DNA of 64,000 nucleotides from an uncultured Candidatus Poseidoniales archaeon (GCA_964389655.1 CAYMED010000001.1:39770-103769); one strand, 5' to 3'. Shown: positions 13,823 through 52,711, counted from the first letter of the stretch. A program made the numbers and translations. Notes: generated by a model not told the origin, from the sequence alone.

Positions 13823-13856
13823 TTTATTGAACTTTCCAATTGAAGAATCAATTCCC

Positions 13857-14678: not shown

Positions 14679-14689
14679 GTGATGGAAGC

Positions 14690-16201
14690 ATGTCCTTCTC
14701 AGTCTCTCAAGAACATTTTTTTGATACCATATTGGTGGCCAATCGTGGTGAAATTGCAGTCCGAATACTTGATGCAATACGTGTTGCAGGCTTTCGATCT
14801 GTAGCGATTTATTCTGCAATAGATTCTCAAGCAATGCATCTTTCTCATGCAGATATCACAGTTGAGATTTCAGGCGATGATTTACACAGCACATACCTCA
14901 ATATTTCTAGTATCATTAATGCAGCCAAGAGAACCAAAGCGGATGCAATTCACCCAGGATATGGCTTTCTTTCAGAAAATGGCGATTTTGCGCGGGCAGT
15001 TATCGAAGAAGGCCTTGTTTGGATTGGCCCACCTCCTAGTGCGATAGATTTGATGGGCGATAAATTAGCGGCCCGTCGCTGTGTACTGAACGCAGGTATT
15101 CCTTTGATACCCGGAATCGAAATCCCGAGTGCCTTGGATGAACATGCAGCCATAGACCTCATTTCATCATTGGGGACTCCTCTCATGCTCAAAGCAGCTG
15201 CTGGCGGCGGTGGGAAAGGAATGCGTCGTGTTACTCAGTTAGATGACATTGGTGAATCCTTTTCTTCAGCACGTAGGGAAGCCCAGTCCTCTTTTGGAGA
15301 TGGAAGAATTTATGCCGAAAAATTGCTTGAACATAGCCACCACGTAGAAATACAAATTGTAGCAGATCTACACGGCGAAGTAGCTCATTTATTGGAACGC
15401 GAATGCTCAGTTCAACGCCGCCATCAAAAAGTGATTGAAGAGGCCCCTTCGCCATTCATTAATGTTGAGACGAGGAATGCAATTTGTGAATCGGCAATTG
15501 CAGTTGCGCGATCAGTCAATTACGTTGGAGTTGGAACAGTAGAATTTCTAGTGGATCAGAATGGGGATCATTACTTTCTAGAAATGAATACTCGGCTACA
15601 AGTTGAACACCCAGTTACAGAAGCAATATCTGGTGTGGATCTAGTCGACCTTCAATTCCAAATTGCAAGTGGTTCTCGACTCCCCCCTGCATTGGCGGGC
15701 ATTTCTGCAAAAGGTCATGCCATGGAAGCCCGGGTTTATGCTGAAAGCCCGCATAATGGTTTTCTTCCTTCGACTGGAAAAATAGAATATCTTCGATGGC
15801 CAATTGGTCCGGGAATTAGAATTGATGCAGGTGTCTTGGAAGGTGACAAGATCGGTGTAACCTTTGACCCAATGCTTGCTAAAATAATTGCTCATGGGAC
15901 TAGCCGAGAAATTGCTCGGCGTCGATTAATTTATGCACTTAAAGAGACAATTCTCTTAGGCGTATCAACAAATATCGGTTTTCTGATTGACGTGTTAGAG
16001 CACCCTGATCAAATTGCAGGTCGAATCGATACGAATTGGATTGACCGACTAGGTCAATCGGAAATTATGCCGACTTTAGACCCCTCAATTGCAATTGCAG
16101 CAATTGCCTTTTTTTCTAAATCAGGTGCTTTGCCAACTTCTAGGGGTATCAAGGGCCCGCCTCAGAGTCCTTTCCTGACACTTTCTCGTACATATCCATA
16201 A
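14690..16201 (+). CDS. liuD: Acyl-CoA carboxylase alpha subunit, biotin carboxylase domain
   Basis: ANRGEIA, HPGYGFLSEN, GGGGKGMR, ERECSVQRRHQK, EMNTRLQVEH, FDPMLAK. Confidence 0.88.
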   Translation: MSFSVSQEHFFDTILVANRGEIAVRILDAIRVAGFRSVAIYSAIDSQAMHLSHADITVEISGDDLHSTYLNISSIINAAKRTKADAIHPGYGFLSENGDFARAVIEEGLVWIGPPPSAIDLMGDKLAARRCVLNAGIPLIPGIEIPSALDEHAAIDLISSLGTPLMLKAAAGGGGKGMRRVTQLDDIGESFSSARREAQSSFGDGRIYAEKLLEHSHHVEIQIVADLHGEVAHLLERECSVQRRHQKVIEEAPSPFINVETRNAICESAIAVARSVNYVGVGTVEFLVDQNGDHYFLEMNTRLQVEHPVTEAISGVDLVDLQFQIASGSRLPPALAGISAKGHAMEARVYAESPHNGFLPSTGKIEYLRWPIGPGIRIDAGVLEGDKIGVTFDPMLAKIIAHGTSREIARRRLIYALKETILLGVSTNIGFLIDVLEHPDQIAGRIDTNWIDRLGQSEIMPTLDPSIAIAAIAFFSKSGALPTSRGIKGPPQSPFLTLSRTYP

Positions 16202-16213
16202 GGAGGTTCAATA

Positions 16214-16714
16214 ATGAGTGAGTGGGTGGTAGAAGGTGATTCAAGACCATGGAGATGCTCAAAGGTTTCTACATCGGAAGTATGCATTTCTTCTGAAGAT
16301 TCTGATGACAGGATTTACTCTATCTCAGAGTATAGCGGCAATAATAAATATCTCATTTCCGATGGGTCTCAATCAAATCTTGCTCATGTTGTTCAACATG
16401 ATGGAAAATATTGGGTACATGTGAATGGAAGGATTCACGTATTGGTGGAAAGAGATGAAAAAAAAGCGAATTCTGACCTGAAATCACCATTGATCACAGC
16501 ACCCATGCCTGGTAAAGTGCTCGAGGTTCTAGTTGACCTTGGAGAGATTGTTGAATCAGGGCAGACGTTGCTGGTCATCGAAGCAATGAAGATGGAACAC
16601 AGAATTAAGGCCTCAATTGATGGCGTGATTGAAACAATAGAATTTGGAATTGGTGATCAAATTGAAGTCGGTGATTTCTTGGTCAGAATTGCTCCAATTG
16701 GTTTGGATCAATGA
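16214..16714 (+). CDS. Biotin carboxyl carrier protein (BT-like plus biotinyl domain)
   Basis: APMPGKV and the biotinylation motif EAMKME; preceded by a GGAGG RBS. Confidence 0.92.
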   Translation: MSEWVVEGDSRPWRCSKVSTSEVCISSEDSDDRIYSISEYSGNNKYLISDGSQSNLAHVVQHDGKYWVHVNGRIHVLVERDEKKANSDLKSPLITAPMPGKVLEVLVDLGEIVESGQTLLVIEAMKMEHRIKASIDGVIETIEFGIGDQIEVGDFLVRIAPIGLDQ

Positions 16715-23372: not shown

Positions 23373-24182
23373 ATGGGAGGCGGTCTGCGGTTAATATGCG
23401 GATTCGGCCTAATTGGCAGCGCAGTTGCCTACTTTTTGCTGGTAGATCGATTGTCTGATGATGCTGCGTACGGACTTGTCGCATTTTCTATTATTTGCTT
23501 TGCAGGTTTGGTGTTGCTGAAAAGCTCACCAAAGAAAAGGCGCCCCCATCGGAAAACGGCGCGTTCTATCGTAGAAGAAAGCCCTCTTGACATTCCGGCG
23601 CCGGTCGTTCTAGATGACGATGGCGATGGGGCCAGCCGCCTTGCAGACAAGGAAGCCATGATTTCGGGTGGCGGTGTTGAAGAACCCTCTTTGGATGAGG
23701 TGGAATCGAATGCTGAGCCAAAAATAATTGATGAAGAATTGCTTGATGAGATCGATGCATTAGAATCCGAAGAAGAAAGTCATATTCTTGAAGCAATTGA
23801 AGAGCGCCGTCGAATTGACTCTAATGTCCGGGCCCGCCTTGCAGGAAACCGCCGAGTACGCCTCTCAAAAGTCCGAGCTGGAGAAGCAAAGAGGCGCTTG
23901 ATGGTGGACTCGCGAGAGGATTTGGTGAAAGTCATTGAAGAAGATGACGGCCACATTGTTGTCTTTGATGAACCAGAACATCCCCCTCCAGGTGCAGCAT
24001 ATGCTGGCGTTTTAGTTCGTATTAATGATGAGCACATATTGCGTCTGCGCCGCCCCCTCTCATCGATGATTTTTGAGCGACCAAGAATTCAAATTGAAAC
24101 TACTGATGACGAAGAGACTGATCAAGAAGATTCACGTCTGTCGGATCTAAAGGATGAATTTAATGGCGAAAATGATTCATGA
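23373..24182 (+). CDS. Hypothetical membrane-anchored acidic protein
   Basis: Two N-terminal TM segments, a basic stop-transfer stretch, then acidic and helical regions. Confidence 0.7.
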   Translation: MGGGLRLICGFGLIGSAVAYFLLVDRLSDDAAYGLVAFSIICFAGLVLLKSSPKKRRPHRKTARSIVEESPLDIPAPVVLDDDGDGASRLADKEAMISGGGVEEPSLDEVESNAEPKIIDEELLDEIDALESEEESHILEAIEERRRIDSNVRARLAGNRRVRLSKVRAGEAKRRLMVDSREDLVKVIEEDDGHIVVFDEPEHPPPGAAYAGVLVRINDEHILRLRRPLSSMIFERPRIQIETTDDEETDQEDSRLSDLKDEFNGENDS

Positions 24183-25025
24183 ACCAGTCCATTCAGGTTT
24201 AGTTCGCTCAAGAAAGGCAGTAACTCCGATCTTTTGGTCGTTTGTATCGAATAAGTTCGAGAATGCTGCTGCTTCAATTTCAATTCCTTTACTAATCGGC
24301 ATTTCAAGAGCAGCGCGTACAGTATTTTTTGCGACTTTAAGTGTATGTGGCGATTTGCTACCAATATTTTTTGCAATCTCGATCGTTTTTTGTTCCAAGT
24401 GATCCGCTTCAAAGAGGTGATTCAATAACCCAATTGATAACGCACGTTCGGCATCTATCATTTCTCCTCCAAGTATCATTTCCATAGCATGACCATAGCC
24501 TACTAGGCGTGGCAAGCGCTGTGTCCCCCCATATCCAGGAATCAATCCTAAATTAATTTCAGGAGTCCCAAAAAGTGCACGCTTGCTGCCAATTCGCAAG
24601 TCACAAGAACAAGCGAGTTCACAACCCCCACCGAGCGCATACCCATCAATCATGGCGATAGTTGGCTTGGATAAATTCCATATCGCTTCAATGGCATTAT
24701 TGAGAAACATTTGCCGGACCGCCTCAGAATTTTTGTCAACAAACTCTGAAATATCAGCCCCTGCAACAAAGGCATGGGGTTTGGCACGCTTTCCTTCTGA
24801 AGGTGGATTAGGTGGTGCGCCCGAAATAATAACAATTCTTACCGAATCCTCTTCTTCAGCCCATTTACACATATTCTTGAGCGCCGAAACCACTTCATGA
24901 TTCAGAGCATTCAGTTTATCCGGCCTACAAATCATTGCTTTGACAATGACTCCTCCGTCAGGTTTCTCTTGGTTGATCAAAATCTCATCGACCTGTATTG
25001 CCTTCGACTGGAATGTACTATCCAT
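24177..25025 (-). CDS. Enoyl-CoA hydratase (crotonase)
   Basis: RPDKLNALN, AFVAGADI, GGGCELA, PEINLGLIPGYGGTQRL; start estimated at ATG 25025. Confidence 0.92.
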   Translation of the reverse strand: MDSTFQSKAIQVDEILINQEKPDGGVIVKAMICRPDKLNALNHEVVSALKNMCKWAEEEDSVRIVIISGAPPNPPSEGKRAKPHAFVAGADISEFVDKNSEAVRQMFLNNAIEAIWNLSKPTIAMIDGYALGGGCELACSCDLRIGSKRALFGTPEINLGLIPGYGGTQRLPRLVGYGHAMEMILGGEMIDAERALSIGLLNHLFEADHLEQKTIEIAKNIGSKSPHTLKVAKNTVRAALEMPISKGIEIEAAAFSNLFDTNDQKIGVTAFLERTKPEWTGS

Positions 25026-25220
25026 GATGATGGGATGATGGCTCGCTTCATGACAATTATCTTTCGGACTTTGATTGCGAATGACAGCATTCATTCACCA
25101 TTTTCGGCAAAAAGAAGGGATGCAATATTTTGTATAATGAATTGTGAGCCGAGTTTTGATCGATAACCATGTTTTGGTCATTACTATTAGTGAATCCACC
25201 ATCACACAAGTTAGGACTTT

Positions 25221-28253: not shown

Positions 28254-29783
28254 ATGGCACAACGCAGAGGTGGACGAGGTGGGCGTAAGCGGGCCCGCGC
28301 ACAGCAGCAGGCACAATATGAAGAACTTGACAAATATCCTGTGGCCCCACCCCACGCATATGCGAGAATTGTCCGGGATATGCGCTCTTTGAACATAATT
28401 TACCAAATTATTGAGCCGCCTCTAACTCGTAAAGAACAGGATTGGAAAGAAGAAATAATGGACATTTTTGTCAAATCCTTGTCGGCAAATATTGAGGAGA
28501 TTGATGCTGACTCCACCGCGTATCTCCGCACTGCGATGGATCGCATCATCAAAGCATATGGTATGAAGATCGCTAAGCGGGAAAAATCAAAGATTTTCTA
28601 TTACCTTCGTCGCGATTTAATTGGATATGGAAGGATGGATGTGCTGATGAATGATCCCAATGTGGAGGACATCAGTCTTGACGGGACTAACATCCCAATT
28701 TTTGCGTATCACCGCAAGTTTGAATCTGTTGAAACGACGTGTAGATGGGCCGAGGATGATGAACTTGAATCCTATGTTATCAAACTCGCCCAACGTTGTG
28801 GAAAACATATTTCTGTGGCGGAACCCCTCCTTGATGCAACTCTAATGGATGGAAGCCGAATTGTGATGAAACTTGGGCATGAGATTTCTACAAAAGGATC
28901 TACATTCTGTATACGAAGGTTCCGTGAGGACCCATTCTCTCCTTGTGATATCGTCGCTTTCCGAACAATGACGAGTTTGATGGTGGCGTATCTTTGGATA
29001 GCCTTTCAACAAGGGATTTCAATGCTGTTTGTGGGGGGGACTGCATCTGGTAAAACAACAACGCTGAATGCTATGTGTTTATTCATCCCATGGCAAATGA
29101 AAATTGTCAGTATTGAATCGACGCGTGAAGTAAATATCCCCCACCCAAATTGGATACCTGGCCTGACACGGCAAGGTTTTGGAGGCGAGACAAATGAAGG
29201 TGAAATCGGTGAGTTCGAATTGCTTAAAGCAGCATTGAGAGAACGACCAGAATATATTATCGTAGGTGAAATCCGTGGTGTAGAGGCATACGTTCTCTTC
29301 CAAGCAATGGCGACCGGACATTGTGCTTATTCTACAGTTCACGCGGATTCAGTCCCTTCACTCGTCCATCGTTTGGAGAATAAACCAATCAATATCCCAC
29401 GTGTTCTATTACCTGCACTTGAGGCAGTATCAATTCAAATGCAGACGAGAATCAATGGGAAACGTGTTCGGCGAACAAAGCAAGTTGTCGAAATTGTTGG
29501 AATTGATCCCCACAGTTTGGAAGTCATCACGAATGAAGTGTTCAAATGGGACCCAGCCACTGATGACTATGTATTTAGTGGAAAATCATACATTTTAGAA
29601 AAGATCATGGTTTTGATAAATTATGATCAAAATGAGATGAGGGAAGAACTTCGTACACGCAAGCGTATTCTCGATTGGATGGTCCTAAATGATATTCGTC
29701 GCTCTGATCAAGTTTCGCAAATCATAACCGAATATTATGTTCGCCCCCAAGCAGTGCTTGCCCGAGTTGACGGTCTCCAGTGA
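28254..29783 (+). CDS. Archaeal type IV pilus assembly ATPase (FlaI/TadA/VirB11 family)
   Basis: DPNVEDIS, GGTASGKTT, ALRERPEYIIVGEIRG, AMATGH, STVHADS. Confidence 0.94.
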   Translation: MAQRRGGRGGRKRARAQQQAQYEELDKYPVAPPHAYARIVRDMRSLNIIYQIIEPPLTRKEQDWKEEIMDIFVKSLSANIEEIDADSTAYLRTAMDRIIKAYGMKIAKREKSKIFYYLRRDLIGYGRMDVLMNDPNVEDISLDGTNIPIFAYHRKFESVETTCRWAEDDELESYVIKLAQRCGKHISVAEPLLDATLMDGSRIVMKLGHEISTKGSTFCIRRFREDPFSPCDIVAFRTMTSLMVAYLWIAFQQGISMLFVGGTASGKTTTLNAMCLFIPWQMKIVSIESTREVNIPHPNWIPGLTRQGFGGETNEGEIGEFELLKAALRERPEYIIVGEIRGVEAYVLFQAMATGHCAYSTVHADSVPSLVHRLENKPINIPRVLLPALEAVSIQMQTRINGKRVRRTKQVVEIVGIDPHSLEVITNEVFKWDPATDDYVFSGKSYILEKIMVLINYDQNEMREELRTRKRILDWMVLNDIRRSDQVSQIITEYYVRPQAVLARVDGLQ

Positions 29784-29792
29784 GGTTGTTGA

Positions 29793-30818
29793 ATGGTTCT
29801 GAGTACTTGGGAACGTTGGTGCACCCGGGTTGTTAATGCATTTTCTGCAGGTTCGGTCAAGAAACGCGCACGCGCAGATCCTGATTTAGCAAATACATTA
29901 GCAAAAGCACGTATGCAGATTGCTCCTGAAGTGTATCGGTCAACTGTTCTCGTTGCCACAATTGTGACGTATGGTGCTTGTATAGCAGCTGCATTTTTTA
30001 TCCGGGCCGTGGTCATGCCTGTAACCTATGAACAGATGCAAGCCCCATCATCAATGGAGGAATGCAGAAAATGGGAAACAGTTCACCCCGAGGAAATTAT
30101 AATCGATGCTGTTGCCTATGGGTGCCCTTATTATGAAACACGGGTATTTGGCATTGCTCCAACGATTATACTCTTTGTAGTCCTTGGCTTCTTCATACCA
30201 TTTGGTCTTCAGAAAATGTACAATGGAAGAGCTAAAGGGGAAGTTAAACGACGTGCTGCGAATCAAGAAAAATATCTCCCATATGCTGCATCATATACTG
30301 CTGCCATGTCTGCAGCGAATGCAACTCCAATGCGAATTTTCAGATCCTTGGCTCAAGCAGAAGACCTGTATGGTGAGATTGCTCATGATTCAGCCATGGT
30401 ATATCGAGATCTAAATGTTCTTGGATATGATTTACTAACTGCAATTAGATCAGCCGTAGAGCGTTCAGCATCTTTGTGGGCTACTGAATTTTTTCAGGGA
30501 ATGGCGGGAACGCTTTCTTCAGGAGGAAACCTAAAATTGTATTTCCTTAATCGCGCAGAGCACTATATGCGTGAAAATAGAACTAGACTTCAAGAATTCC
30601 TTGAGACGCTTTCTATGATGGCTGAATCCTATATCGTCGTTGCAGTTGCCATGCCTCTTTTCTTGATTGTAATGCTTGTAATTATGTATTGGGTTTCAGG
30701 TTCAGGATCCTCAATGAGTGATGGCTTCATCTACACAGTTGTCTTGGGAGTGATTCCAATGATTCACGTTGCCTATAGCCTGCTGGTATGGATGATGAGT
30801 GAAGAACAAAAAATGTGA
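29793..30818 (+). CDS. Type IV pilus platform protein (TadB/FlaJ, T2SSF domain)
   Basis: LAKARMQI, LPYAASY, YGEIA, LSSGGNL, ETLSMMAESY; follows the ATPase. Confidence 0.88.
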   Translation: MVLSTWERWCTRVVNAFSAGSVKKRARADPDLANTLAKARMQIAPEVYRSTVLVATIVTYGACIAAAFFIRAVVMPVTYEQMQAPSSMEECRKWETVHPEEIIIDAVAYGCPYYETRVFGIAPTIILFVVLGFFIPFGLQKMYNGRAKGEVKRRAANQEKYLPYAASYTAAMSAANATPMRIFRSLAQAEDLYGEIAHDSAMVYRDLNVLGYDLLTAIRSAVERSASLWATEFFQGMAGTLSSGGNLKLYFLNRAEHYMRENRTRLQEFLETLSMMAESYIVVAVAMPLFLIVMLVIMYWVSGSGSSMSDGFIYTVVLGVIPMIHVAYSLLVWMMSEEQKM

Positions 30819-30830
30819 GGTTGATTGTTC

Positions 30831-32381
30831 ATGGCAAGGAAGAAAAAGCCCACATTAAAGGTGGAACTTCATCTTCCCAAAGATGACAAAACTGAATCAC
30901 GTTTTATCATAATATTGATCATATCCATGCTTGTTGCAATCGGCTTTTTTGGATTTTGGCTGACTAATTTCCTTCCTCACCCAAATGGTGAACCCATTTT
31001 CATCAATCTAGCATGCCAGCGAGATACCACTACACTTCCCACGTGGGAAATGAATAATTCATGTTCGCTTACACAGGACATGGCGTCCACTGAAGTTTGG
31101 ACCGATACAATCCTCTCGGTTGATAAGGGGCGTGGGCGAGGATTCTCGGTTCCAGGTGTTCCCGAATGGGAAGAAAGTCCTGGTTCTTTCCAACACCCCC
31201 CAATTGCGATACGGGGAACATGTAAGATTACATTATCCAATTTACCCACTTACTCGATGCGCATATTTCGTGCAGCAGATTATGATATTGGACGTCCTGC
31301 AGTAGAAATTGCTAGTGGTACATTTGAATCGGGAGAGCCTTGCCAAATTTCAGGAGAGATTACTGGTTTGGGGGTCGATGTTCCTGGTGAGGGTTATCGA
31401 ATTGAAATTGTACCTGAGCCTGGCTCGGAGATTTCCCGTGAGGCCGAGTTTACCATTGAGGTAGACACGTATGATGGTGTACCTGAAATGATGAATAATA
31501 AATCAAAATTTTTGGGTCCCGAAATAAACACAGGGATCATTAGCCTACGCCCATTTAATTTCCTTAATTGGTTTGCATTTGGGATGTTCACCCTTTTATT
31601 CCCTGCATCATTTTATTGGGACCGCGTTCAAAAGAAAACCGAAGCGATGGAAAATAAATTTCCAGATTTCCTTAGAGATCTTGCAGAATATTGGAAGGGT
31701 GGCTTATCAATGACAGTTGCAGTTCAGACACTTACCACCGCTGAATATGGAGCATTGAATGATGAGGTTAAGAAGATGTCAGATCAAATTTCATGGGGTG
31801 TTGCATTTGAGAATGTACTTCTCCTTTTTGCCGACCGTGTTGGTACCCCCCTCGTTCGTCGTGCAATTTCATTGATTTGTGAGGCTAATCGTGCCGGAGG
31901 AAAAATCTCAGATATCTTGGTTACTGCAGCAAATGATACCCGTGAAATTAAATTCTTAGAGCAAGAGCGAATTCGCGCAATTGCCTCGTATAAGGCAGTT
32001 ATTTGGACTTCATACTTTGTGTTCTTAGGGGTAATTGTTGTTCTCGCTAAAGTCTTCATTCCTGCTATTGCGAGCAGCAATTCTAGCGGCGAGAGCGAAT
32101 CAATTGGTGCGATGACAATTAAATCAGTTGAACCATTGTTTTTCCTTACTGTGTTCTTTTATGGTGTTACGATGCAAGCAGTAGGAAATGGTGCAATGGC
32201 GGGGATAATGGCTACAGGGCGCATCTCTTCTGGCTTCAGAATCTCTGGAATGATGATTCTCGTTGCTCTGTTATCATTCAATCTCGTGGCATTTTCTCCA
32301 GATTTGATGGGTGTACCCATACCTAGAGGACTAAGTCCTGATCTTGGCGGTTATGAGACAACAGCATTTGTAGGTGGTTAA
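30831..32381 (+). CDS. Type IV pilus platform protein (TadC, T2SSF) with a large N-terminal inserted domain
   Basis: FPDFLRDLAE, YGALNDEV, QISWG, AGGKISDIL, GNGAMAG in the C-terminal half. Confidence 0.88.
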   Translation: MARKKKPTLKVELHLPKDDKTESRFIIILIISMLVAIGFFGFWLTNFLPHPNGEPIFINLACQRDTTTLPTWEMNNSCSLTQDMASTEVWTDTILSVDKGRGRGFSVPGVPEWEESPGSFQHPPIAIRGTCKITLSNLPTYSMRIFRAADYDIGRPAVEIASGTFESGEPCQISGEITGLGVDVPGEGYRIEIVPEPGSEISREAEFTIEVDTYDGVPEMMNNKSKFLGPEINTGIISLRPFNFLNWFAFGMFTLLFPASFYWDRVQKKTEAMENKFPDFLRDLAEYWKGGLSMTVAVQTLTTAEYGALNDEVKKMSDQISWGVAFENVLLLFADRVGTPLVRRAISLICEANRAGGKISDILVTAANDTREIKFLEQERIRAIASYKAVIWTSYFVFLGVIVVLAKVFIPAIASSNSSGESESIGAMTIKSVEPLFFLTVFFYGVTMQAVGNGAMAGIMATGRISSGFRISGMMILVALLSFNLVAFSPDLMGVPIPRGLSPDLGGYETTAFVGG

Positions 32382-32831
32382 ATGGGACCGCTCCGGTCCG
32401 ATGAGGAAGGGCAGGTTCACATTCTTGAGATGATTACCCTTTTCTGGCTCTTTTTTATGAGTGCAGCATTCATCTTGAAAATACAAATCCCCGACCCAGC
32501 GTCTCCTGCGGCAGATGCGGGTTTGGAGATCGTTGCTAGAGACACCATCAGTTTTGTTCTCTCAGACGGCCCGAGTGTGAATCAAAGTAGCGTTCACCAT
32601 TCACTTGGCATGGGAGACCGAAATGCTGCTTGTGCAACTGTTATGGAAGCACTTCCGGTGCAGTATGACGGAAATTGTTGGTTGTCGCTTGACATTGAAT
32701 GGCCACAAGTAGTTGGAAATTACGCTGAGCCAATTGGCCGTAGTTCCAGTACTCATCGGCTAGTTGTCGTCGATGAAGATGTCTGGACTCTGTCTCTTCA
32801 AGTTTGGGCACTTGGGGGGGGAGTGTCTTGA
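32382..32831 (+). CDS. Putative pilin (class III signal peptide)
   Basis: MGPLRSDEEG|QVHILE followed by a hydrophobic helix; lies in the pilus operon. Confidence 0.7.
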   Translation: MGPLRSDEEGQVHILEMITLFWLFFMSAAFILKIQIPDPASPAADAGLEIVARDTISFVLSDGPSVNQSSVHHSLGMGDRNAACATVMEALPVQYDGNCWLSLDIEWPQVVGNYAEPIGRSSSTHRLVVVDEDVWTLSLQVWALGGGVS

Positions 32832-33259
32832 AACGGACTATACACGAGGACGAAGATGCGCAGATGTTGCTGGCAACCGGTATGGTATTGCTCATGTCAC
32901 TTCTTTCAATGGTATTGCTTAGCCTTCAGTATGTTAGCATGGGTGAGCCCTATGACCCTTCACCTCGTGAAGCACTACGATGTTCCGATGAAATACAGAA
33001 ACAATTTCCACATCTGATTGAGGTGCGTGCATCTGAACTAATTCAGGCAGGTTCTGATGAAAGATCAGCGATTTGGGCGGCATTGAATTCGAGTGCATCT
33101 GACCTGAACCATCATGGAGAAATTAGGGGGATTGATGTAGCACTTCTTGATTCGACCGTGGATAATGAAGGAGGCGCTTGGAGAATCCAGTCTTCATTAG
33201 GTGTGGCGGATGACACGATACGCCTTGAAGTTCCCCTCTCGATCATTATTGACCTATGA
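32828..33259 (+). CDS. Putative pilin (class III signal peptide)
   Basis: KRTIHEDEDA|QMLLATG followed by a hydrophobic helix; TTG start overlaps the previous stop. Confidence 0.65.
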   Translation: MKRTIHEDEDAQMLLATGMVLLMSLLSMVLLSLQYVSMGEPYDPSPREALRCSDEIQKQFPHLIEVRASELIQAGSDERSAIWAALNSSASDLNHHGEIRGIDVALLDSTVDNEGGAWRIQSSLGVADDTIRLEVPLSIIIDL

Positions 33260-33299: not shown

Positions 33300-34718
33300 A
33301 TGGACGTGCGTGATTGTCTGTATATAGATGGCCAATGGACTAAGCCCCATGGGAGGAACAGCATCGATGTTGTGAACCCAGCGACTGAACAAATCATTGG
33401 TGCAGTTCCTGCTGGAAATATTGATGACATCAATGATGCAGTATCGGCATCGAAAACGGCATTTCTGACATGGTCTAAAAGCCCATTAGCAGACCGGATC
33501 CAAATATTGAATGGCCTTTCAACAATATTCAAGCAGCGCACTGATGAAATTGCAGAACTTATTACTTCAGAAGTGGGAACCCCCCTCGGTTTTAGCCGCA
33601 TGGCGATGGTCGGAACTCCGCGTGTAGTTTCACGTTCCTATGCAAAAATTCTAGAGAATTTTTCGTTTGAAGAACAAGTGTATAATTCTCTAGTGATCAA
33701 GGAACCAGTTGGGGTGTGTGCACTGATTACTCCTTGGAATTATCCTCTCCACCAGATTATTGGGAAAGTTGCACCTGCGATTGCAGCTGGTTGCACTATG
33801 ATTCTAAAGCCCTCAAAAGAAGCACCATTGAATGCATTCTTGCTAGCTGAGATTCTAGACGAACTTGGCTTGCCAAGTGGGGTATTCAACCTCGTGAGTG
33901 GCCATGGAAGCGATATTGGCGATGCTCTTGCTAAGCATCAAGATGTGGACATGGTGTCATTCACGGGATCCACAGTGGCTGGTGTCAAAGTTAGCAAATC
34001 CGCTGCCCCCACTATTAAGCGAGTAACTCTTGAATTAGGCGGCAAAAGTGCGAACGTTGTTCTCGATGAAGGGAGCGCGATCCGTGCAGCAAAGAGTTCT
34101 ATAAGTGCTTGTTTCTCTAACTCTGGACAAACATGTTCAGCATTAACCCGGCTCATTATCCCTGCAGGATGCAGGGATGAGGTGATCGAAATAGTCACTC
34201 AGCGGGTGAATGGATATCGTGCAGGTGACCCAATGGATGAAAACACCAAGTGTGGCCCGATGATCTCTGCCCGGCAACAGGAAATTGTAACTGAATACAT
34301 CCAAAGTGGAATTGATGAGGGCGCAAATCTGATCGCTGGTGGGCTTGGGATGCCTGATGGGTTAGAGAAGGGATTCTATGTTAGGCCCACGGCATTTGCT
34401 GACGTGTCGTCTGATATGCGAATATGGAGGGAGGAGATTTTTGGACCAGTATTGGTTATCTCAACTTATGAATCCGAAGAGGAGGCTCTTACTTTGGCTA
34501 ATGATTCCCACTATGGGCTTTCAGGGTGTGTGTGGTCTGAAGATGAAGAGATTGCCCTCAACTTTGCTCGAGGCATGCGAACCGGCCAAGTCAGCATCAA
34601 TGGTGGCCCCTTTAACATAAGTGCGCCATTTGGTGGATACAAGATGTCAGGTAATGGCCGAGAGTTAGGGGTACACGGTTTAACCGAATTTCTTGAATTA
34701 AAATCTATTCAAATGTGA
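33300..34718 (+). CDS. NAD(P)-dependent aldehyde dehydrogenase
   Basis: ITPWNYP, FTGST, LELGGKS, NSGQTCSA, EEIFGPV, PFGGYK. Confidence 0.95.
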   Translation: MDVRDCLYIDGQWTKPHGRNSIDVVNPATEQIIGAVPAGNIDDINDAVSASKTAFLTWSKSPLADRIQILNGLSTIFKQRTDEIAELITSEVGTPLGFSRMAMVGTPRVVSRSYAKILENFSFEEQVYNSLVIKEPVGVCALITPWNYPLHQIIGKVAPAIAAGCTMILKPSKEAPLNAFLLAEILDELGLPSGVFNLVSGHGSDIGDALAKHQDVDMVSFTGSTVAGVKVSKSAAPTIKRVTLELGGKSANVVLDEGSAIRAAKSSISACFSNSGQTCSALTRLIIPAGCRDEVIEIVTQRVNGYRAGDPMDENTKCGPMISARQQEIVTEYIQSGIDEGANLIAGGLGMPDGLEKGFYVRPTAFADVSSDMRIWREEIFGPVLVISTYESEEEALTLANDSHYGLSGCVWSEDEEIALNFARGMRTGQVSINGGPFNISAPFGGYKMSGNGRELGVHGLTEFLELKSIQM

Positions 34719-35510
34719 GTGGTGAATTTAATGGAAGTTGAACTGCAGACCATCGAAGGTGGCCTTGCTCTTCTTACTTTACCTTCAACAGGGCACTCAA
34801 ATGCGCTTACAGGATCTTCTATGGATGCCATTATCGATACGCTGCAGGCACTCAATGATGACCCCAATATCCGTGCAGTGATCTTGACAGGGAAGGGGCG
34901 AATTTTCTGTACGGGTGCAGATATTGATGCAATCAAAGAGTCCTTGGACGAAGGAAATATTGAATCTCATGTCCGACATCTTACAGATCGTCTTCACCCC
35001 ATGCTGATCAAGATGGCCTCATCTTCCACGGTTTATGTTGCAGCGGTCAATGGAAGTGCGGCGGGAGGGGGGCTTGGCCTTGCCTTAGCCTGTGACTTCC
35101 GGATTTCGACCGCAGATGCACGAATTGGTTCAGCTTACTTCAGCATCGGTTTGAGCCCAGATGGTGGGTCGACTTACTTCTTGCCTAGGCTAATTGGAAT
35201 GTCAACCACGCGACGTTTCTTGTTTGAGAAAGAAGTATTGACTGGGTCAGAAGCATATGCTTATGGCCTCGTGGATGAGATTGTTGAACCAGAATTTTTA
35301 CTTCAGCATTCAGTTAAAAAGGCAAAATTATGGTCTCAACACCCTCCCCATCTTGTTCAAGCGACAAAATCTCTGTTACGGTCAACATGGGATGTGGATA
35401 TGGGTGAACAACTCAGCCGCGAGCAATCCCTCATTGTTGCATCAGCAAGTAACCCTCATTTTGAGAAATGTGTCAAAGCCTTTCTTGGCAGAAGGAAAAA
35501 CAAGTCATAA
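34719..35510 (+). CDS. Enoyl-CoA hydratase/isomerase, PaaG-like
   Basis: FCTGADI, AAGGGLGLALACD, IGLSPDGGSTYFLPRL. It lacks the two crotonase Glu residues and has the PaaG-type Asp in PDGG. Confidence 0.82.
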   Translation: MVNLMEVELQTIEGGLALLTLPSTGHSNALTGSSMDAIIDTLQALNDDPNIRAVILTGKGRIFCTGADIDAIKESLDEGNIESHVRHLTDRLHPMLIKMASSSTVYVAAVNGSAAGGGLGLALACDFRISTADARIGSAYFSIGLSPDGGSTYFLPRLIGMSTTRRFLFEKEVLTGSEAYAYGLVDEIVEPEFLLQHSVKKAKLWSQHPPHLVQATKSLLRSTWDVDMGEQLSREQSLIVASASNPHFEKCVKAFLGRRKNKS

Positions 35511-36389
35511 ATGTAAGCGATCAATTTTTCCATCGTCATTCCACTCATAGATTCCCTTTCCACTTTTCTTGCCCAAATCACCTTTAGCGACAAGTTCTTT
35601 CAATAGGGGATGGGGTTCGTAAGAAGGGTCTTGAAAAGAATCTCGTAGATTTTCTAATATGTGCATGCGAACATCTAATCCAACCAAATCAGTCAATTCA
35701 AGCGGACCCATCGGATGCCGATATCCAAGCTTCATGGCCGTATCAATATCTGATGCTGAAGCGACACCATCAGCAAGCATGCGGATTGCTTCATTTCCTA
35801 ATATTACTCCAAGGCGGCTTGTTGCAAAACCAGGCATATCTTTGACTAGTATTGTTGTTTTCCCCATAGTAGTTCCTGCCAATTTTGCTAATGCAATAGT
35901 ATCTTCAGAACATAAATCATGTTTTACTAATTCAAGCAATTTCATTATAGGGACCGGGTTAAAAAAATGCATTCCAATGACTTTGTCAGGCCTTCCTGAA
36001 GCAGCAGCAATGTCGGCAATTGATAGGGAGGATGTATTTGTTCCTAAGAGGCAATCATCTTTTGTCTCTTCACCAAGAACATGAAAAATGCTTGCTTTGA
36101 TTTGAAGTACTTCAGGAACGGCTTCAATTACCATATCGGCATCTCTTACAGCAGCAACCATGTCTGAGAACGGATGAAGATTAGAGCTCCACTCTTTTTT
36201 CTGTTCTGGAGTTGTTTTACCACGTGCAATTCCTTTTTCCCAAAAAGCGTCAATAGCATTCATTCCTTTGTCTAACCCCTCTGAATATGCATCAAACAAA
36301 TTGGTTTTCCAACCTGCTTGTGCTGATACTTGTGCGATCCCAGCACCCATTGTCCCCGCACCAATAACAGCAACGCGCTGAATGTCCAT
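35505..36389 (-). CDS. 3-hydroxyacyl-CoA dehydrogenase (PaaH/Hbd family)
   Basis: GAGTMGAGIA, IEAVPE, TNTSS, GMHFFNP, PGF, HPMGPLEL. Confidence 0.94.
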   Translation of the reverse strand: MDIQRVAVIGAGTMGAGIAQVSAQAGWKTNLFDAYSEGLDKGMNAIDAFWEKGIARGKTTPEQKKEWSSNLHPFSDMVAAVRDADMVIEAVPEVLQIKASIFHVLGEETKDDCLLGTNTSSLSIADIAAASGRPDKVIGMHFFNPVPIMKLLELVKHDLCSEDTIALAKLAGTTMGKTTILVKDMPGFATSRLGVILGNEAIRMLADGVASASDIDTAMKLGYRHPMGPLELTDLVGLDVRMHILENLRDSFQDPSYEPHPLLKELVAKGDLGKKSGKGIYEWNDDGKIDRLHL

Positions 36390-36436
36390 GGGTTCTCGAA
36401 TAGGTGGGGGTTGAAATCGATTCGCACGAGTCGTTT

Positions 36437-37390
36437 CTAATTTTCCGTTCTTTTGAAATCCCTGCCATTTCCATCACTGCTGGCTAGAGTAACTCCACTG
36501 ACAATTAGTGCGAAAGAAACAAGCAGAGACCATCCAAACTTTTCTCCAAGGAGTAACCAACCAAAAAAAATTCCGAAGAGTGGAACAAGGTAAACGTACA
36601 GGGCAGCCTGTGCTGCACCGATGTCACGTACTCCGTCTGCAAACCAAACATATGAGATGACAGTAGAGATGACAGCAAGGAAAAGAATCGAAACCCATGT
36701 GATTTGAGAAATAACAGGGATCCCGAATTGAATTGTTTCCCAACTGGCCCATGGTGTAAGCAAAACTAACCCAATCAAAGATGCCCAGGCGGTTAATTCC
36801 AATGGCGTCATTGCATTTTGCCCACTTTCATCACCCACATCCAGTGCTTTTTTCATAAAAATTGTCGAACAAGCCCATGCAAATGCCCCTCCTGCAATCA
36901 ATGCATCTCCCCAAAGTCTCTCATTTAGGGGCAGATCAATGTTTGGACTTTTGTTAGCAATGACTGCAATTCCTAAGATACCTAGGACAATGCCTCCCAT
37001 GAGCCGTGGCGTCATTTTTTCTCCAAGAAATGGTATTGCTAGTATTGCAGTGAAAAGTGGGTTAAATGTGATCACAAGTGATGCATCACCGGCAGCGGTC
37101 CATCGCATACCAAACATAAACAATACTTGGTACAAAAACGCTCCAAAAAATCCAATCGATGCAATTTGAAACCATTCTTTTTGGTTTGGTATTCGTAATT
37201 CATTTCGCCATTCTAACCAGATTATGAAGAGGGGAACTGCAATTGCGTACCTCAACCAAGCGCCAGTAACTGGTGGGATATCCAATGCCAACCACCTCCC
37301 TGCGGCCCATGCAGCACCCCATGTGGCAGCGACAAAGAGCAATTTTGCATGTGTGGTTAATGGGCGTGGGGAGTCGCCACGTACATTCAC
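36437..37390 (-). CDS. DMT/EamA family transporter
   Basis: Ten TM helices in two EamA repeats (WG..., LGE motifs). Confidence 0.9.
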   Translation of the reverse strand: MNVRGDSPRPLTTHAKLLFVAATWGAAWAAGRWLALDIPPVTGAWLRYAIAVPLFIIWLEWRNELRIPNQKEWFQIASIGFFGAFLYQVLFMFGMRWTAAGDASLVITFNPLFTAILAIPFLGEKMTPRLMGGIVLGILGIAVIANKSPNIDLPLNERLWGDALIAGGAFAWACSTIFMKKALDVGDESGQNAMTPLELTAWASLIGLVLLTPWASWETIQFGIPVISQITWVSILFLAVISTVISYVWFADGVRDIGAAQAALYVYLVPLFGIFFGWLLLGEKFGWSLLVSFALIVSGVTLASSDGNGRDFKRTEN

Positions 37391-37436
37391 GACCTTGGGA
37401 GTGAATGAGGGGTGTTAATGTGAGTTGCCGTGCGTC

Positions 37437-37982
37437 TTAATCGACGTGAGCCCATTGCGCTAGTCCAATTTCAATGATGCGTTGTCTTGGCAAAGATAAT
37501 TCAGGTAATGCGTTTGCATGTGCGTATTCTATGAGTCCTTCTATTTGCATTACATAAATTCCATAGGATGCAATATCATATGGGTCCCATGATGTCTCAA
37601 GGCCAAGTTTAGCCAACCCTTTACATGCCATTGGTGAATAAATCGGGTAAACCAGACTTGTGAAATGCAACCAGTGGCTTAATCTGGTCACATCCATATT
37701 ATCAATCGAAAGCAATTTTTCAGCTAATGCTACATCTGGATAACGAAGTGTATCAAGTACAACTAATATCTCAAGTAGGATGCTTTCATCCCAACTCGTA
37801 TCTGCACGTCCCATCCATTCATCGATCAGTTTGAGATGGCTTTCTCTAGCTGGCTTTTCTACTTTGTACAGCAAGGCTTCATAGGTGTGATCTCTTACTG
37901 AATTTACAATTATGTTTGGCAAAAAATCAAAGAATTTCTTGCCTTTATCTATGTTGATTCTTTGCAGAAAGAGGGGGATCAT
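37437..37982 (-). CDS. Hypothetical protein downstream of the boxB-like gene
   Basis: 181-aa ORF with a GAGGGTG RBS-like element, starting 22 nt after the boxB stop. Confidence 0.7.
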   Translation of the reverse strand: MIPLFLQRINIDKGKKFFDFLPNIIVNSVRDHTYEALLYKVEKPARESHLKLIDEWMGRADTSWDESILLEILVVLDTLRYPDVALAEKLLSIDNMDVTRLSHWLHFTSLVYPIYSPMACKGLAKLGLETSWDPYDIASYGIYVMQIEGLIEYAHANALPELSLPRQRIIEIGLAQWAHVD

Positions 37983-38004
37983 TGTACACCCTCATTGGTA
38001 TATA

Positions 38005-39168
38005 CTATGCTGATACGCTCCCAATGCCAGATTCGATCATCATCCTAGTTGGGGCGCGAAATTCAATCCACTCTTGTTCAAAGATCTCTTTCAGTTCCTC
38101 TTCGTCCTGATCTGTTGGTAACAATTTAGCAAGGTACGATTCCCATTCCTGTTCTGAACCATCAAAAGCCACACCCTCGACAGTGAATCTCTCACCAGCA
38201 CATGAACCAATCTCTCGATTGAAGTTTTCATGTGCGACGTAGAGGGGGGCAGCATCTTCGGGTAAGAGACCATTCATCTTGTTAACTTCCCCTACTATCT
38301 CATCGTGGTAATGTCCTCGACTTTCCTCATTGAGATATTCTTTTGCCACATCTTCTCCATTCTCAAGTTTGACCCGTTCATCCCAGCGGCCCTTAATTCC
38401 CCAGACATAGGCCCATTCAGCTGAAGTTGAGGTATCTGTACCAAACAAGTCGTGTGCTGTTGATACCCATTTGTTAAAGTATCTCTGTAACATGTCCAAG
38501 GGGATGATTCCTGCCTTGATGATTCGGCGCAAGCCATTAGCTCCTGTTCCTAGGTGGAACGATTCTTCCTTGAGCATTGGACCCATGCTTGCGGCCAATG
38601 GCTTGAAGCCAGAGGTAGATAGCATGCCAAGTTGAAATTTACCATCTCTGTCAATGAACATCGTGTAGCAGAAGAAGTCGAGCCAATGTGGCATCAAACG
38701 GTTGAATGCACCCAGTAATCGGCTGCCATCTTGGGCGTTTCTCTCCAAGAGTTTCTGTGCTTCTCTAGCTCCCTGCTGTCCGAAATATGTCATCAAAAGA
38801 TAGCACATTTGCCAACCGTGGCGCTGTTCTTCTGCCATGATTCTAGCAGCAGCATAACGGTCATACTCAGTCGGTGCGGTCTCCAACAAGTGCTTCTGTT
38901 GTTCAACACTGGCAAATTCGGTGTCTCCTTGAACAGTGATCATAGAGAGAAGGCCATCCCTAATGTTCTGGTGTGGGATCTGAAGGGATCGATCCCACTT
39001 TGGCCTACCTTTGTAATCACCGAATTCAATGAAATCTCCTGCCCTTTCCCAATCAAATTTGATGGATAAGTCAAAATCTCCAATCCACTCTCGCTTGAAA
39101 CCTATGCGTTCTTGCCACTCATTGAAGTTCTCTACCCAGTCATCGAAGGTAACTGGCAACTGACCCAT
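38005..39168 (-). CDS. boxB: BoxB-like aryl-CoA epoxidase (ferritin-like diiron, BoxB/PaaA family)
   Basis: QGDTEFASVEQQ, EEQRH, YFG, LLER, GAFN, WLDFF, DRDGKFQL, PLA, EESFH; start at ATG 39168 with GGAGGT directly upstream. Confidence 0.82.
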   Translation of the reverse strand: MGQLPVTFDDWVENFNEWQERIGFKREWIGDFDLSIKFDWERAGDFIEFGDYKGRPKWDRSLQIPHQNIRDGLLSMITVQGDTEFASVEQQKHLLETAPTEYDRYAAARIMAEEQRHGWQMCYLLMTYFGQQGAREAQKLLERNAQDGSRLLGAFNRLMPHWLDFFCYTMFIDRDGKFQLGMLSTSGFKPLAASMGPMLKEESFHLGTGANGLRRIIKAGIIPLDMLQRYFNKWVSTAHDLFGTDTSTSAEWAYVWGIKGRWDERVKLENGEDVAKEYLNEESRGHYHDEIVGEVNKMNGLLPEDAAPLYVAHENFNREIGSCAGERFTVEGVAFDGSEQEWESYLAKLLPTDQDEEELKEIFEQEWIEFRAPTRMMIESGIGSVSA

Positions 39169-39391
39169 ACCTCCCCGAGAAGTGACACACGCATCAATCT
39201 CTCCCTTATCTGATCGCCCATTCAATTGGGCTAAATATTCGAACATCATCAAGATGGTTACATATTATTTTGTGTTTTGTGAGGTGGATTATCTGACAAA
39301 TAGTTGATCTTGATATTCAACTAATTTCGAGATATTGCAGAGGCTGATACGCCGAGGTGATACGTGGATGTTCGGGTGTATCTTAGGCAGC

Positions 39392-40246
39392 TTATTCTCC
39401 TTTGAAATTTGCCACACGCTTTTCTACATATGCAGCAATTCCTTCCTTTGCATCACTACTGTTGAAGAGTGCAGCTTGTAATTCACGTTCAAGTGCGAGA
39501 TGGTACTCAAATGGTATTTCGGACCCAGTTTGGACACTTCTTTTGATGTTCCCTACTGCTTTTGCGGCTTTATTTGGCAGGGTGAACTGGCCCGCCCAAT
39601 CAAGCACGTCTCGCCTGAATTCAGCAGCATTTCCCTCAAATACATGATTGATCAACCCCATTTCAATTCCATCTTCAAATGATTTGAGTTCTCCAGTGAC
39701 CATCATTTCCATCGCTTTCGCCTTTCCGATTAATCGGCTAAGTCTTGCAGTCCCTCCAGTTCCTGCAAGAACTCCCAAATTAATCTCGGGGAGCCCTATT
39801 TTTCCAGCATTCTTTCGAGCAATACGTATGTCTGCTGCCATTGCAATTTCAAGTCCTCCTCCCACTGCATGGCCGTTCATCGCACAAATCACCAATTTCG
39901 GAGTTTGTTCAAGTCTCGATAACGTTTCATTTGCATGAAGACAAAAGCAGTATTTGAAACCAGGGCTTACACTATTCAGCATCTGGATGCTAGCTCCCGC
40001 TGAGAAGAATTTCTCTCCGTGTCCGATTAGAACAATTACAGTTACATCATCATCAAACCTTGCACGAACAATTGCTTCGTCTAGGTCTCGCATCATTTCG
40101 TGAGTGTAGGTATTCGGACCTTGCCCTCCTTCCGCTAGAGGCTCGCCCGAAGAATCACTAGCCAATTCTATGATTGCAATTCCGTTGGGAGTGGTGCCAT
40201 AATTCACGAGTTTGTTCGGCATTGCTTCAAGAATATGATCATTCAT
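39392..40246 (-). CDS. Crotonase-family protein resembling the BoxC N-terminal domain (oxepin-CoA hydrolase candidate)
   Basis: NTY..RARFD, FSAGASIQML, FKYCFCLHANET, GGGLE, LPEI, GTGG; start at ATG 40246 with a GGAGA RBS. Confidence 0.75.
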   Translation of the reverse strand: MNDHILEAMPNKLVNYGTTPNGIAIIELASDSSGEPLAEGGQGPNTYTHEMMRDLDEAIVRARFDDDVTVIVLIGHGEKFFSAGASIQMLNSVSPGFKYCFCLHANETLSRLEQTPKLVICAMNGHAVGGGLEIAMAADIRIARKNAGKIGLPEINLGVLAGTGGTARLSRLIGKAKAMEMMVTGELKSFEDGIEMGLINHVFEGNAAEFRRDVLDWAGQFTLPNKAAKAVGNIKRSVQTGSEIPFEYHLALERELQAALFNSSDAKEGIAAYVEKRVANFKGE

Positions 40247-51463: not shown

Positions 51464-52711
51464 TTGTCTAAGGTATGGAGTAGCAAAAATCCCTTTCTGG
51501 CCCGCATGTCCGATAGAGATATTCTCAATTTGCGCCCCTCATCCAAAGAAACCCGCCATATTGTGATTGAACTAGGCGATAGTGGTATTCAGTATAAAGT
51601 GGGAGATGCACTTGGCATCATCCCTCAGAACCCTCCACATCTAGTCGATGGCCTCATTGAGTGCATGGGTGCATCACCTGATGACAAAATAAAGACGAGT
51701 AAAGGGGATCGGAAATTATCTGATGCCTTTAGAGAAGATGTTGAAATTCACCGTTTATCGAAGAAAGTCGTTCAAGCATTAGCATCTAAATCGTCAGGTT
51801 CTACCGGTGCGCCAACAATACGGACGATCAGCAACCAGCGCCACAATCTTTCTTCAAGAGAAGAAATGATTGCTGAATGTCCAAAGCCATCTCGACAAAA
51901 TGGTAACCCCTTTGACAGGATTGCCCAGGTCGTCTCAAGTCCATCATCATTGGACTCTTATATTGGTCAGAGAGATTACATCGACTTGGTTAATGAAATT
52001 GGGACAGATGTGCTCTCCGGGCAAGAAATATATGATCTTATGGACCGGATGAAACCTAGGCTTTATTCAATTGCATCTTCGTTGGATGTGCACCCAGGAC
52101 AGGTGCAATTGACAGTTGCAATCGTGCGCTATGAAACACTGGGGCGGCGGCGCGCAGGATTGTGCACTGGATGGTTGGCTGATGTTGCCGAACTTGATGC
52201 AACAGATATTCCAGTTTTCCTTTCTCCCACCCGTTCATTTGTACTTCCCCCCGACCCCAACACAGATGTCATCATGATTGGACCCGGAACTGGCATCGCA
52301 CCTTTCCGTGCCTTCCTAGAACAGCGCGCTTTCGATGGCGGAAATGGGAGGAATTGGTTATTCTTTGGGGACTGGACTGAATCGGGAGATTTTCTTTATC
52401 GTGATGAACTGGAAAAACATCAATCAACAGGTGTTTTGACAAGTTTAACAACAGCATTCAGTAGGGATCAAGATACAAAAGTGTATGTCCAGCACCGCAT
52501 GCAAGAGCATGCATCAGAAATCTGGAACTGGATTGAAAATGGCGCACACTTCTATGTTTGTGGTGATAAAAGTAAGATGGCAAAGGATGTTCATCAAACT
52601 CTCATAAAGATCGCTATTGAATACGGCCAGCGCACTGAAGAAGATGCCACACATTATGTGGAAAAAATATTGATGCGTGAGGAAAAGAGATATCTCCGTG
52701 ACGTGTACTGA
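51464..52711 (+). CDS. CysJ-like FAD/NAD(P)H-binding reductase lacking the flavodoxin (FMN) domain
   Basis: KETRH, YKVGDALG, PRLYSIASS, GLCT, MIGPGTGIAPF, AFSR, YVQH, YVCG, RYLRDVY. Confidence 0.88.
   Translation: MSKVWSSKNPFLARMSDRDILNLRPSSKETRHIVIELGDSGIQYKVGDALGIIPQNPPHLVDGLIECMGASPDDKIKTSKGDRKLSDAFREDVEIHRLSKKVVQALASKSSGSTGAPTIRTISNQRHNLSSREEMIAECPKPSRQNGNPFDRIAQVVSSPSSLDSYIGQRDYIDLVNEIGTDVLSGQEIYDLMDRMKPRLYSIASSLDVHPGQVQLTVAIVRYETLGRRRAGLCTGWLADVAELDATDIPVFLSPTRSFVLPPDPNTDVIMIGPGTGIAPFRAFLEQRAFDGGNGRNWLFFGDWTESGDFLYRDELEKHQSTGVLTSLTTAFSRDQDTKVYVQHRMQEHASEIWNWIENGAHFYVCGDKSKMAKDVHQTLIKIAIEYGQRTEEDATHYVEKILMREEKRYLRDVY

Follow-up and report, generated by a model that had tools for sequence, protein, structure and literature searches.

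The two described systems closest to the locus analysed here are the Box pathway, known from BoxB of Azoarcus/Aromatoleum evansii (PDB 3PER/3PM5), and the paa pathway of Escherichia coli (PaaABCE, G, Z, F, H, J, K), both of which act on coenzyme A (CoA) esters of aromatic compounds. BoxC, the crotonase of the Box pathway, co-purifies with BoxB, and its N-terminal domain alone is catalytic (PMC4498308). We examined a stretch of 64,000 nucleotides (the window) from an uncultured Candidatus Poseidoniales archaeon of Marine Group II (MGII; GCA_964389655.1 CAYMED010000001.1:39770-103769), whose assembly is 93% complete and belongs to a small third family of the order; among named loci, those of Candidatus Poseidoniales / Poseidonia come nearest to it. 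An initial annotation had read seven genes of this window as a hybrid box/paa pathway for aryl-CoA epoxides. We found that the cluster centres on a short BoxB-type diiron oxygenase and a single-domain crotonase related to BoxC (henceforth half-BoxC). Judging from their sequences, the module very probably consists of some aryl-CoA epoxidase plus a ring hydrolase, and the chances are about even that benzoyl-CoA is the substrate of what would then be a minimal Box-type ring-cleavage module.

The locus resembles the Box pathway in its diiron ligands and much of its substrate pocket, in having one catalytic subunit without PaaC and a BoxC-related, two-glutamate crotonase as partner, and in its downstream beta-oxidation enzymes. 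It differs in the length of the oxygenase, in the single crotonase domain where BoxC has two, in an added partner protein of 181 amino acids (aa), and in lacking BoxA, BoxD, BoxR, DUF4863 and a benzoate-CoA ligase. With the paa pathway it shares the diiron superfamily (PF05138), and the host genome encodes PaaG-, PaaF-, PaaH- and PaaJ-like proteins. However, the oxygenase is 22.6% identical to PaaA (32 bits), and tblastn searches of the genome found no PaaB, C, E, K, I, X or Y, no PaaZ hydrolase domain and no BoxA.

The diiron protein, which is the only PF05138 gene product of the host genome, scores 216.7 bits against the BoxB profile (TIGR03225, cut-off 499.1) and 32.3 bits against the PaaA profile (TIGR02156, cut-off 280). 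Its best PDB match is A. evansii BoxB (E 3e-50). At 387 aa it is ~90 aa shorter than BoxB (475 aa), to which it is 36.5% identical, and five BoxB stretches of 8-24 aa are missing. The six iron ligands of BoxB (E120, E150, H153, D211, E240 and H243; numbering from PMC5489048) are all present, as E84, E114, H117, D173, E202 and H205. Aligned to BoxB, five of the seven benzoyl-pocket residues are identical (Q116, T119, S123, F193, F203), while F206 is replaced by Y and T210 by I; P121 is replaced by F. These pocket comparisons are made by alignment, the alignment-free fold of the oxygenase being unusable (predicted local distance difference test, pLDDT, 37). In the short group, position 121 is F in 262 of 262 sequences and position 210 is V or I in 258, whereas canonical BoxB (n=32) has P at 121 and nearly always T at 210. 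A still shorter diiron relative is found in PDB 4MUD, a ring-oxidation-related protein (64 bits) that has other pocket residues.

A maximum-likelihood tree unites the short forms with canonical BoxB in a single clade opposite the PaaA-like enzymes (100/100). Within this clade, canonical BoxB makes up a sub-clade on a long stem (100/100), from which the window protein is left out; the tree is midpoint-rooted and its bootstrap values are rough and not fully settled. The label "BoxB-like" given in the initial annotation is therefore sound as far as kinship with BoxB rather than PaaA and the full ligand set are concerned, but the protein is a short form that stays below the BoxB cut-off and outside the canonical clade. 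It appears to work like BoxB yet falls outside the BoxB family.

The 284-aa crotonase shares 35% identity over 175 aa with BoxC (556 aa), in the N-terminal half only, and scores 70.2 bits on the BoxC profile (TIGR03222, cut-off 712.3). It carries both catalytic glutamates and a K..FC...NET signature, as do BoxC N-domains; PaaF and PaaG do not have this signature. It clusters with the BoxC N-domains in the tree (support 98). The protein described earlier as a BoxC-like crotonase thus has the signature of the BoxC catalytic domain, although it has one domain instead of two and scores far below the cut-off. Its best PDB match and closest solved structure is 2PPY, an enoyl-CoA hydratase of Geobacillus kaustophilus (222 bits), with which it has the signature in common. 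Neither the oxygenase nor half-BoxC matches a curated family, and for 2PPY and 4MUD we found generic names and no functional paper.

The short oxygenase is encoded in 40 of 41 Poseidoniales, in at least eight other Thermoplasmatota families, and in Acidobacteriota, Binatia, Gemmatimonadales and Zixiibacteriota. We surveyed 201 Thermoplasmatota genomes: 65 have a diiron-family match, 64 have half-BoxC, 62 have both and 134 have neither. The two genes thus occur together in 62 of the 67 carriers of either one, even where they are unlinked. Although related genomes in this count are not independent, the pair is found across many families and in both domains (Archaea and Bacteria); two bacterial loci have half-BoxC orthologues (60-64% identity) no more than 5 kb from the short oxygenase. 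This co-occurrence is the strongest evidence that the oxygenase and half-BoxC act together. The module is a near-universal, core trait of Poseidoniales and is not peculiar to this genome.

Gene order is less informative. It is conserved in 80 related loci, but moaC, moaE, glpX and the pilus genes are equally syntenic, so synteny within MGII is weak evidence. This bears on the alternative that there is no single pathway here, that the diiron protein does not epoxidise rings, and that its neighbours are fatty-acid beta-oxidation genes held in place by general gene order. Such a reading could also draw on an inversion that parts half-BoxC from the oxygenase in most MGIIa loci, on an aldehyde dehydrogenase (ALDH) that is swapped between lineages, and on bacterial loci in which the oxygenase stands without companions. 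We nevertheless regard it as highly improbable: the pairing of the two genes persists where they are unlinked and recurs in bacteria, half-BoxC is 73-83% conserved over most of the order, and the nearest relatives of both proteins are two enzymes that are known partners (PMC4498308). Related loci typically carry an HTH_10 regulator upstream and, close by, a flavoprotein; in this genome neither was found. Contigs with the archaeal gene order were also seen in genomes labelled Yoonia, Deltaproteobacteria and Rhodobiaceae (L026, L032, L060); these contigs are probably mis-binned Poseidoniales.

The 181-aa partner has no Pfam or NCBIfam match. A profile search detected it in 54 genomes, all of them among the 56 with a full short oxygenase, and it lies directly downstream of the oxygenase in 52; it was not found in the bacterial loci examined. 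Its structure was predicted with high confidence (pLDDT 91), and the best match of the model is 3n0u (Z 7.9, under the 13 considered safe for helical folds; root-mean-square deviation 4.4 over 158 aa). The top eight matches are all helix-hairpin-helix (HhH) glycosylases, whereas Foldseek returned no match. An HhH fold is probable, at a modest Z. Among 31 sequences of the protein there is no invariant Lys or Asp corresponding to the catalytic pair of HhH-GPD enzymes. An accessory subunit and a nucleic-acid-binding regulator are both guesses at its role.

From the genes, residues, phylogeny and co-occurrence we infer a set of reactions, together with their substrate, reductase and source of the CoA ester. 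With electrons from a flavoprotein whose gene lies elsewhere, the short diiron enzyme would use O2 to form an epoxide on the ring of an aryl-CoA, benzoyl-CoA being the likeliest. Half-BoxC would hydrolyse the epoxide/oxepin to an acyclic semialdehyde, with loss of formate if benzoyl-CoA is the substrate, and an ALDH would oxidise the semialdehyde. The PaaG-type isomerase, a PaaF-type hydratase, the 3-hydroxyacyl-CoA dehydrogenase and an unlinked 3-oxoadipyl-CoA-type thiolase could then yield acetyl-CoA plus succinyl-CoA. The O2-dependent aryl-CoA epoxide route of the initial annotation remains the best reading of the tree, the ligands, the BoxC signature and the co-occurrence, although the short and half-length pair is itself uncharacterised.

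Candidate genes for most of these steps can be pointed out. The PaaF-type hydratase clusters with E. coli PaaF and with PaaF-like genes of related clusters (support 98), and is 41% identical to a gene of the bacterial operon L110. The 3-hydroxyacyl-CoA dehydrogenase is 40% identical to E. coli PaaH and 49% to a gene of L110; it adjoins the oxygenase in several distant Thermoplasmatota families, where the PaaG-type isomerase likewise recurs. A thiolase on contig C5 is 51% identical to PaaJ, with 3-oxoadipyl-CoA thiolase as its best model (536 bits, cut-off 605). The cluster itself contains no CoA ligase, thiolase or boxA, as had been stated, and a search of the whole genome yielded this unlinked PaaJ-like thiolase but no benzoate-CoA ligase or PaaK.

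For the electrons, the closest match to BoxA is the flavin domain of a CysJ-type protein 12 kb from the module (33% identity; 74 bits on TIGR03224, cut-off 459). It has no flavodoxin domain. All 21 Poseidoniia tested have it, among them the 19 MGII tested and 2 genomes that lack the oxygenase; of 28 other Thermoplasmatota that carry the oxygenase, none has it. We rejected it as a dedicated reductase on account of this lack of specificity. The electron donor seems to vary, since three loci of other metagenomes have NuoE/F-like genes after the oxygenase. Two bacterial loci (L113:11156-12739 and L114:9686-11272) have a NuoE/NuoF-like pair directly behind the short oxygenase, a candidate alternative reductase.

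Benzoyl-CoA as substrate is favoured by the BoxB-sized pocket, in which five BoxB residues are kept, and by a link to 4-hydroxybenzoyl-CoA reductase (HcrCAB; Thauera aromatica, PDB 1RM6). The host encodes a three-gene HcrCAB-like molybdoenzyme, unlinked to the module (G000 contig C3 64020-68411; L170:2021-5793), with the four-cysteine loop in its beta subunit; the gene was found in 19 of 19 MGII tested. Its HcrA-like protein has HcrA as best model (815 bits, cut-off 994.6) and matches 1rm6 with 648 bits (next match 269); a further subunit scores 218 bits (cut-off 404.6). The short oxygenase of the bacterial locus L112 has next to it, on its far side, a true HcrA (1008 bits, cut-off 994.6) that follows it. 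Hcr chemistry requires a thioester conjugated to the ring, and for this reason the link points to benzoyl esters. The HcrCAB-like enzyme may supply benzoyl-CoA from 4-hydroxybenzoyl-CoA. Unlike the setting of the described enzyme, the host is an aerobe, and no subunit of the benzoyl-CoA-reductase family that could consume the product was found in its genome. Of 47 oxygenase carriers, 32 encode the Hcr-like protein without HppD, 7 encode HppD without it, none has both and 8 have neither. This split, over about a dozen families, hints that the Hcr-like enzyme handles tyrosine-derived carbon.

A Thermus plasmid cluster combines a basal member of the half-BoxC clade with a benzoate-CoA-ligase-family gene (588 bits, cut-off 375), a thiolase and ALDHs. 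It is one of several divergent second paaA/paaC-like clusters with a BoxC-clade crotonase (L164:7475-14170 and L166:5598-9796, Thermus thermophilus plasmid AP031329.1; L165, a Haladaptatus plasmid). Their PaaA-like subunits are 29-30% identical to E. coli PaaA, and the Haladaptatus cluster has UbiD decarboxylases; these clusters possibly stand for a benzoate route that employs PaaA-like subunits. One sister-order genome that lacks the oxygenase (L181; G066 contig C55) has an HcrA-like gene together with a cyclohexadienecarbonyl-CoA-hydratase-like gene, an anaerobic benzoyl-CoA context that may also be a mis-binned contig.

Several observations weigh against benzoyl-CoA. The changes at positions 121 and 210, which are near-invariant in canonical BoxB, go toward PaaA throughout the short group. 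There is no BoxA with its two [4Fe-4S] clusters, in a genome that is 93% complete. The HcrA-like protein of the host falls short of its cut-off, and any substrate or direction assigned to it is putative. No benzoate-CoA ligase was found in 36 Poseidoniales searched; the three AMP-binding enzymes of this genome resemble acetate and fatty-acid ligases, and benzoate-ligase-family genes in other carriers mostly adjoin a salicylyl/anthraniloyl-CoA monooxygenase. No route from amino acids to benzoyl-CoA was found in the genome. No side-chain-shortening route to benzoyl-CoA was found either, and a Pad-type side-chain oxidation was given up as there is no PadB or PadG match. A route through phenylalanine ammonia-lyase likewise has no support, the ammonia-lyase of the genome lying among histidine-utilisation genes. 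ADP-forming acyl-CoA synthetases gave weak partial matches only. Uptake and activation of free benzoate, phenylacetate or lignin monomers, as first suggested, is not supported, no dedicated ligase having been found in any of the 36 Poseidoniales searched.

Phenylacetyl-CoA would need no ligase if it were made from phenylalanine by transamination and oxidative decarboxylation of phenylpyruvate. The single-subunit BoxB-type enzyme would then replace PaaABCE, and half-BoxC would replace the oxepin hydrolase of PaaZ. That PaaK was found in none of the 65 genomes with a diiron gene fits this route, and the host has a 2-oxoacid dehydrogenase complex and two 2-oxoacid oxidoreductases. PhhA and HppD were found in none of 36 Poseidoniales searched, whereas the oxygenase-free sister order has HppD in 2 of 2 genomes and PhhA in 1 of 2. 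HmgA was not found in this genome, by tblastn only, the HgmA_C profile being insensitive (it missed an HmgA-like gene in L119). In other families the cluster adjoins tyrosine and tryptophan catabolic genes, a PaaG-type isomerase accompanies the module in most lineages, and L110 resembles a paa operon. MGII are proteolytic (PMC6461757), and crotonase-type oxepin-CoA hydrolases have been proposed in other organisms (PMC9007349). However, canonical BoxB does not oxidise phenylacetyl-CoA (PMC4498308), and the Hcr link points elsewhere. PaaA has smaller residues than BoxB at several pocket positions, so the short oxygenase, which retains BoxB-sized residues around the ring, does not appear enlarged for a longer substrate. 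The PaaG-, PaaF-, PaaH- and PaaJ-like proteins do not separate the two esters because both routes require them. On balance we consider phenylacetyl-CoA rather unlikely, and benzoyl-CoA the better candidate.

In family f28 (L144, L146, L148, L150, L151), a PaaA-like diiron gene lies near a 2Fe-2S ferredoxin and a PaaD-like gene, PaaB and PaaC were not detected, and half-BoxC adjoins a thiamine-pyrophosphate enzyme resembling 2-hydroxyacyl-CoA lyase. We rejected this PaaA-like partner as proof of a phenylacetate role for half-BoxC, because the f28 enzyme groups with the divergent Thermus and Haladaptatus enzymes and not with E. coli PaaA.

The conserved changes at positions 121, 206 and 210 could instead reflect another aromatic or heteroaromatic CoA ester, such as hydroxy- or aminobenzoyl-CoA or 4-hydroxyphenylacetyl-CoA. 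The genome contains a partial salicylyl/anthraniloyl-CoA monooxygenase and a LigB-type dioxygenase, and UbiD decarboxylases and CoA transferases occur near related clusters. We judge such a substrate improbable, as no gene for a specific substituted compound is linked consistently across lineages. The monooxygenase fragment (54% identity) is on a contig of 1251 bases (G000 contig C83) and may be contamination. The dioxygenase has two subunits and lies with an ALDH (G000 contig C17 49453-54028); it probably belongs to tryptophan or aminophenol catabolism.

The features of the cluster and two genes outside it are listed in Table 1. All seven open reading frames are present and uninterrupted on the strands claimed for them. 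The plus-strand ALDH and crotonase converge on the five minus-strand genes, as first described, and meet them end to end with overlapping stop codons at 35505-35510. Scans of the locus for sigma-70 promoters and terminators gave chance level only.

Table 1. Genes of the candidate ring-cleavage module and of the window that bear on it
Feature	Position	Strand	Remarks
Aldehyde dehydrogenase (ALDH), generic	33300..34718	+	candidate semialdehyde dehydrogenase, not BoxD
PaaG-type crotonase	34731..35510	+	isomerase signature: no catalytic glutamates, one aspartate; ATG after GGTGA
3-hydroxyacyl-CoA dehydrogenase	35505..36389	-	PF02737+PF00725; putative PaaH-like role (3-hydroxyadipyl-CoA)
EamA/DMT (drug/metabolite) transporter	36437..37390	-	PF00892; probable passenger
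181-aa conserved partner protein	37437..37982	-	fold predicted as all-helical, closest to helix-hairpin-helix DNA glycosylases
Short-form BoxB-type diiron aryl-CoA oxygenase, 387 aa	38005..39168	-	putative module core; ATG at 39168 after GGAGGT site
Single-domain crotonase (half-BoxC), 284 aa	39392..40246	-	probable ring-opening hydrolase; start 40246
PaaF-type enoyl-CoA hydratase	24177..25094	-	lower-pathway candidate; 8 kb away, outside seven-gene cluster
CysJ-type FAD/NADPH reductase domain protein	51464..52711	+	possible electron donor, module-unspecific

The best models of the plus-strand crotonase are oxepin_alt (170 bits, cut-off 300) and PaaG (123.6 bits, cut-off 345). The ALDH reaches no NCBIfam cut-off among its best 25 models. 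The BoxD role implied by the initial annotation is not confirmed: the ALDH is neither BoxD- nor PaaZ-like (27% identity to the PaaZ ALDH domain, separate branch in the tree), and its slot holds another subfamily elsewhere. Orthologues (67-71%) occupy the same slot in 4 of 6 MGIIb loci, and a different ALDH subfamily (33% identity) is found there in MGIIa and the closest relatives. The window (compared with L026, L027, L028 and L136) thus has the MGIIb type where its closest relatives have the other, and this alternation of two subfamilies suggests replacement in place. The EamA transporter, also listed with the cluster at first, is present in 75 of 80 close loci, while 20 loci of MGIIb and other Thermoplasmatota all lack it. 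It is probably a passenger, being missing outside the two closest families.

Elsewhere in the window, genes for a secretion ATPase, two TadC-like membrane proteins and two small pilin-like proteins (one weakly DUF7261) at 28254-33259 resemble an archaeal type IV pilus-like operon that ends 40 bases before the ALDH. Genes for a carboxyltransferase, a crotonase, a biotin carboxylase and a carrier follow one another at 12215-16714, by eye an ordinary leucine-degradation (methylcrotonyl-CoA carboxylase) cluster. On other contigs of the host, a 793-aa double-domain ALDH, a deoxyribose-phosphate-aldolase-like gene and a family III CoA transferase are adjacent (G000 contig C5 17539-20871), and a dimethyl sulfoxide-reductase-family molybdoenzyme with an NrfD-type partner and no close model could be a formate dehydrogenase (G000 contig C26 6944-10730; L169).

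The module is a variant of known chemistry, the cleavage of rings through CoA epoxides, and its short oxygenase is already labelled automatically in databases as boxB or a phenylacetate gene. We found no publication on the module in MGII or on the short/half pair, most subscription journals lying outside the search. Acidobacteriota, Gemmatimonadota, Binatia and Zixiibacteriota commonly carry the pair. As a tentative proposal, which we hold to be possible but doubtful, MGII might cleave the rings of phenylalanine and tyrosine by a ligase-free route. Such a route would join an "anaerobic" Hcr-type dehydroxylase to an ancestral minimal Box system (short epoxidase, single-domain hydrolase and HhH-fold accessory), which would later have been the source of canonical BoxB and two-domain BoxC.

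Among the planktonic archaea of surface seawater, Poseidoniales are the most abundant, and they have been described as degraders of proteins and fatty acids; aromatic catabolism is absent from the main comparative paper on MGII (PMC6461757). The module may be how these protein-eating archaea break down aromatic compounds, and as a near-universal ring-cleavage module it would add aromatic carbon turnover to the core metabolism of the order. Settling the function of the short/half pair would put the annotation of thousands of proteins right and reveal what stands between the epoxidases of the Paa and Box systems.

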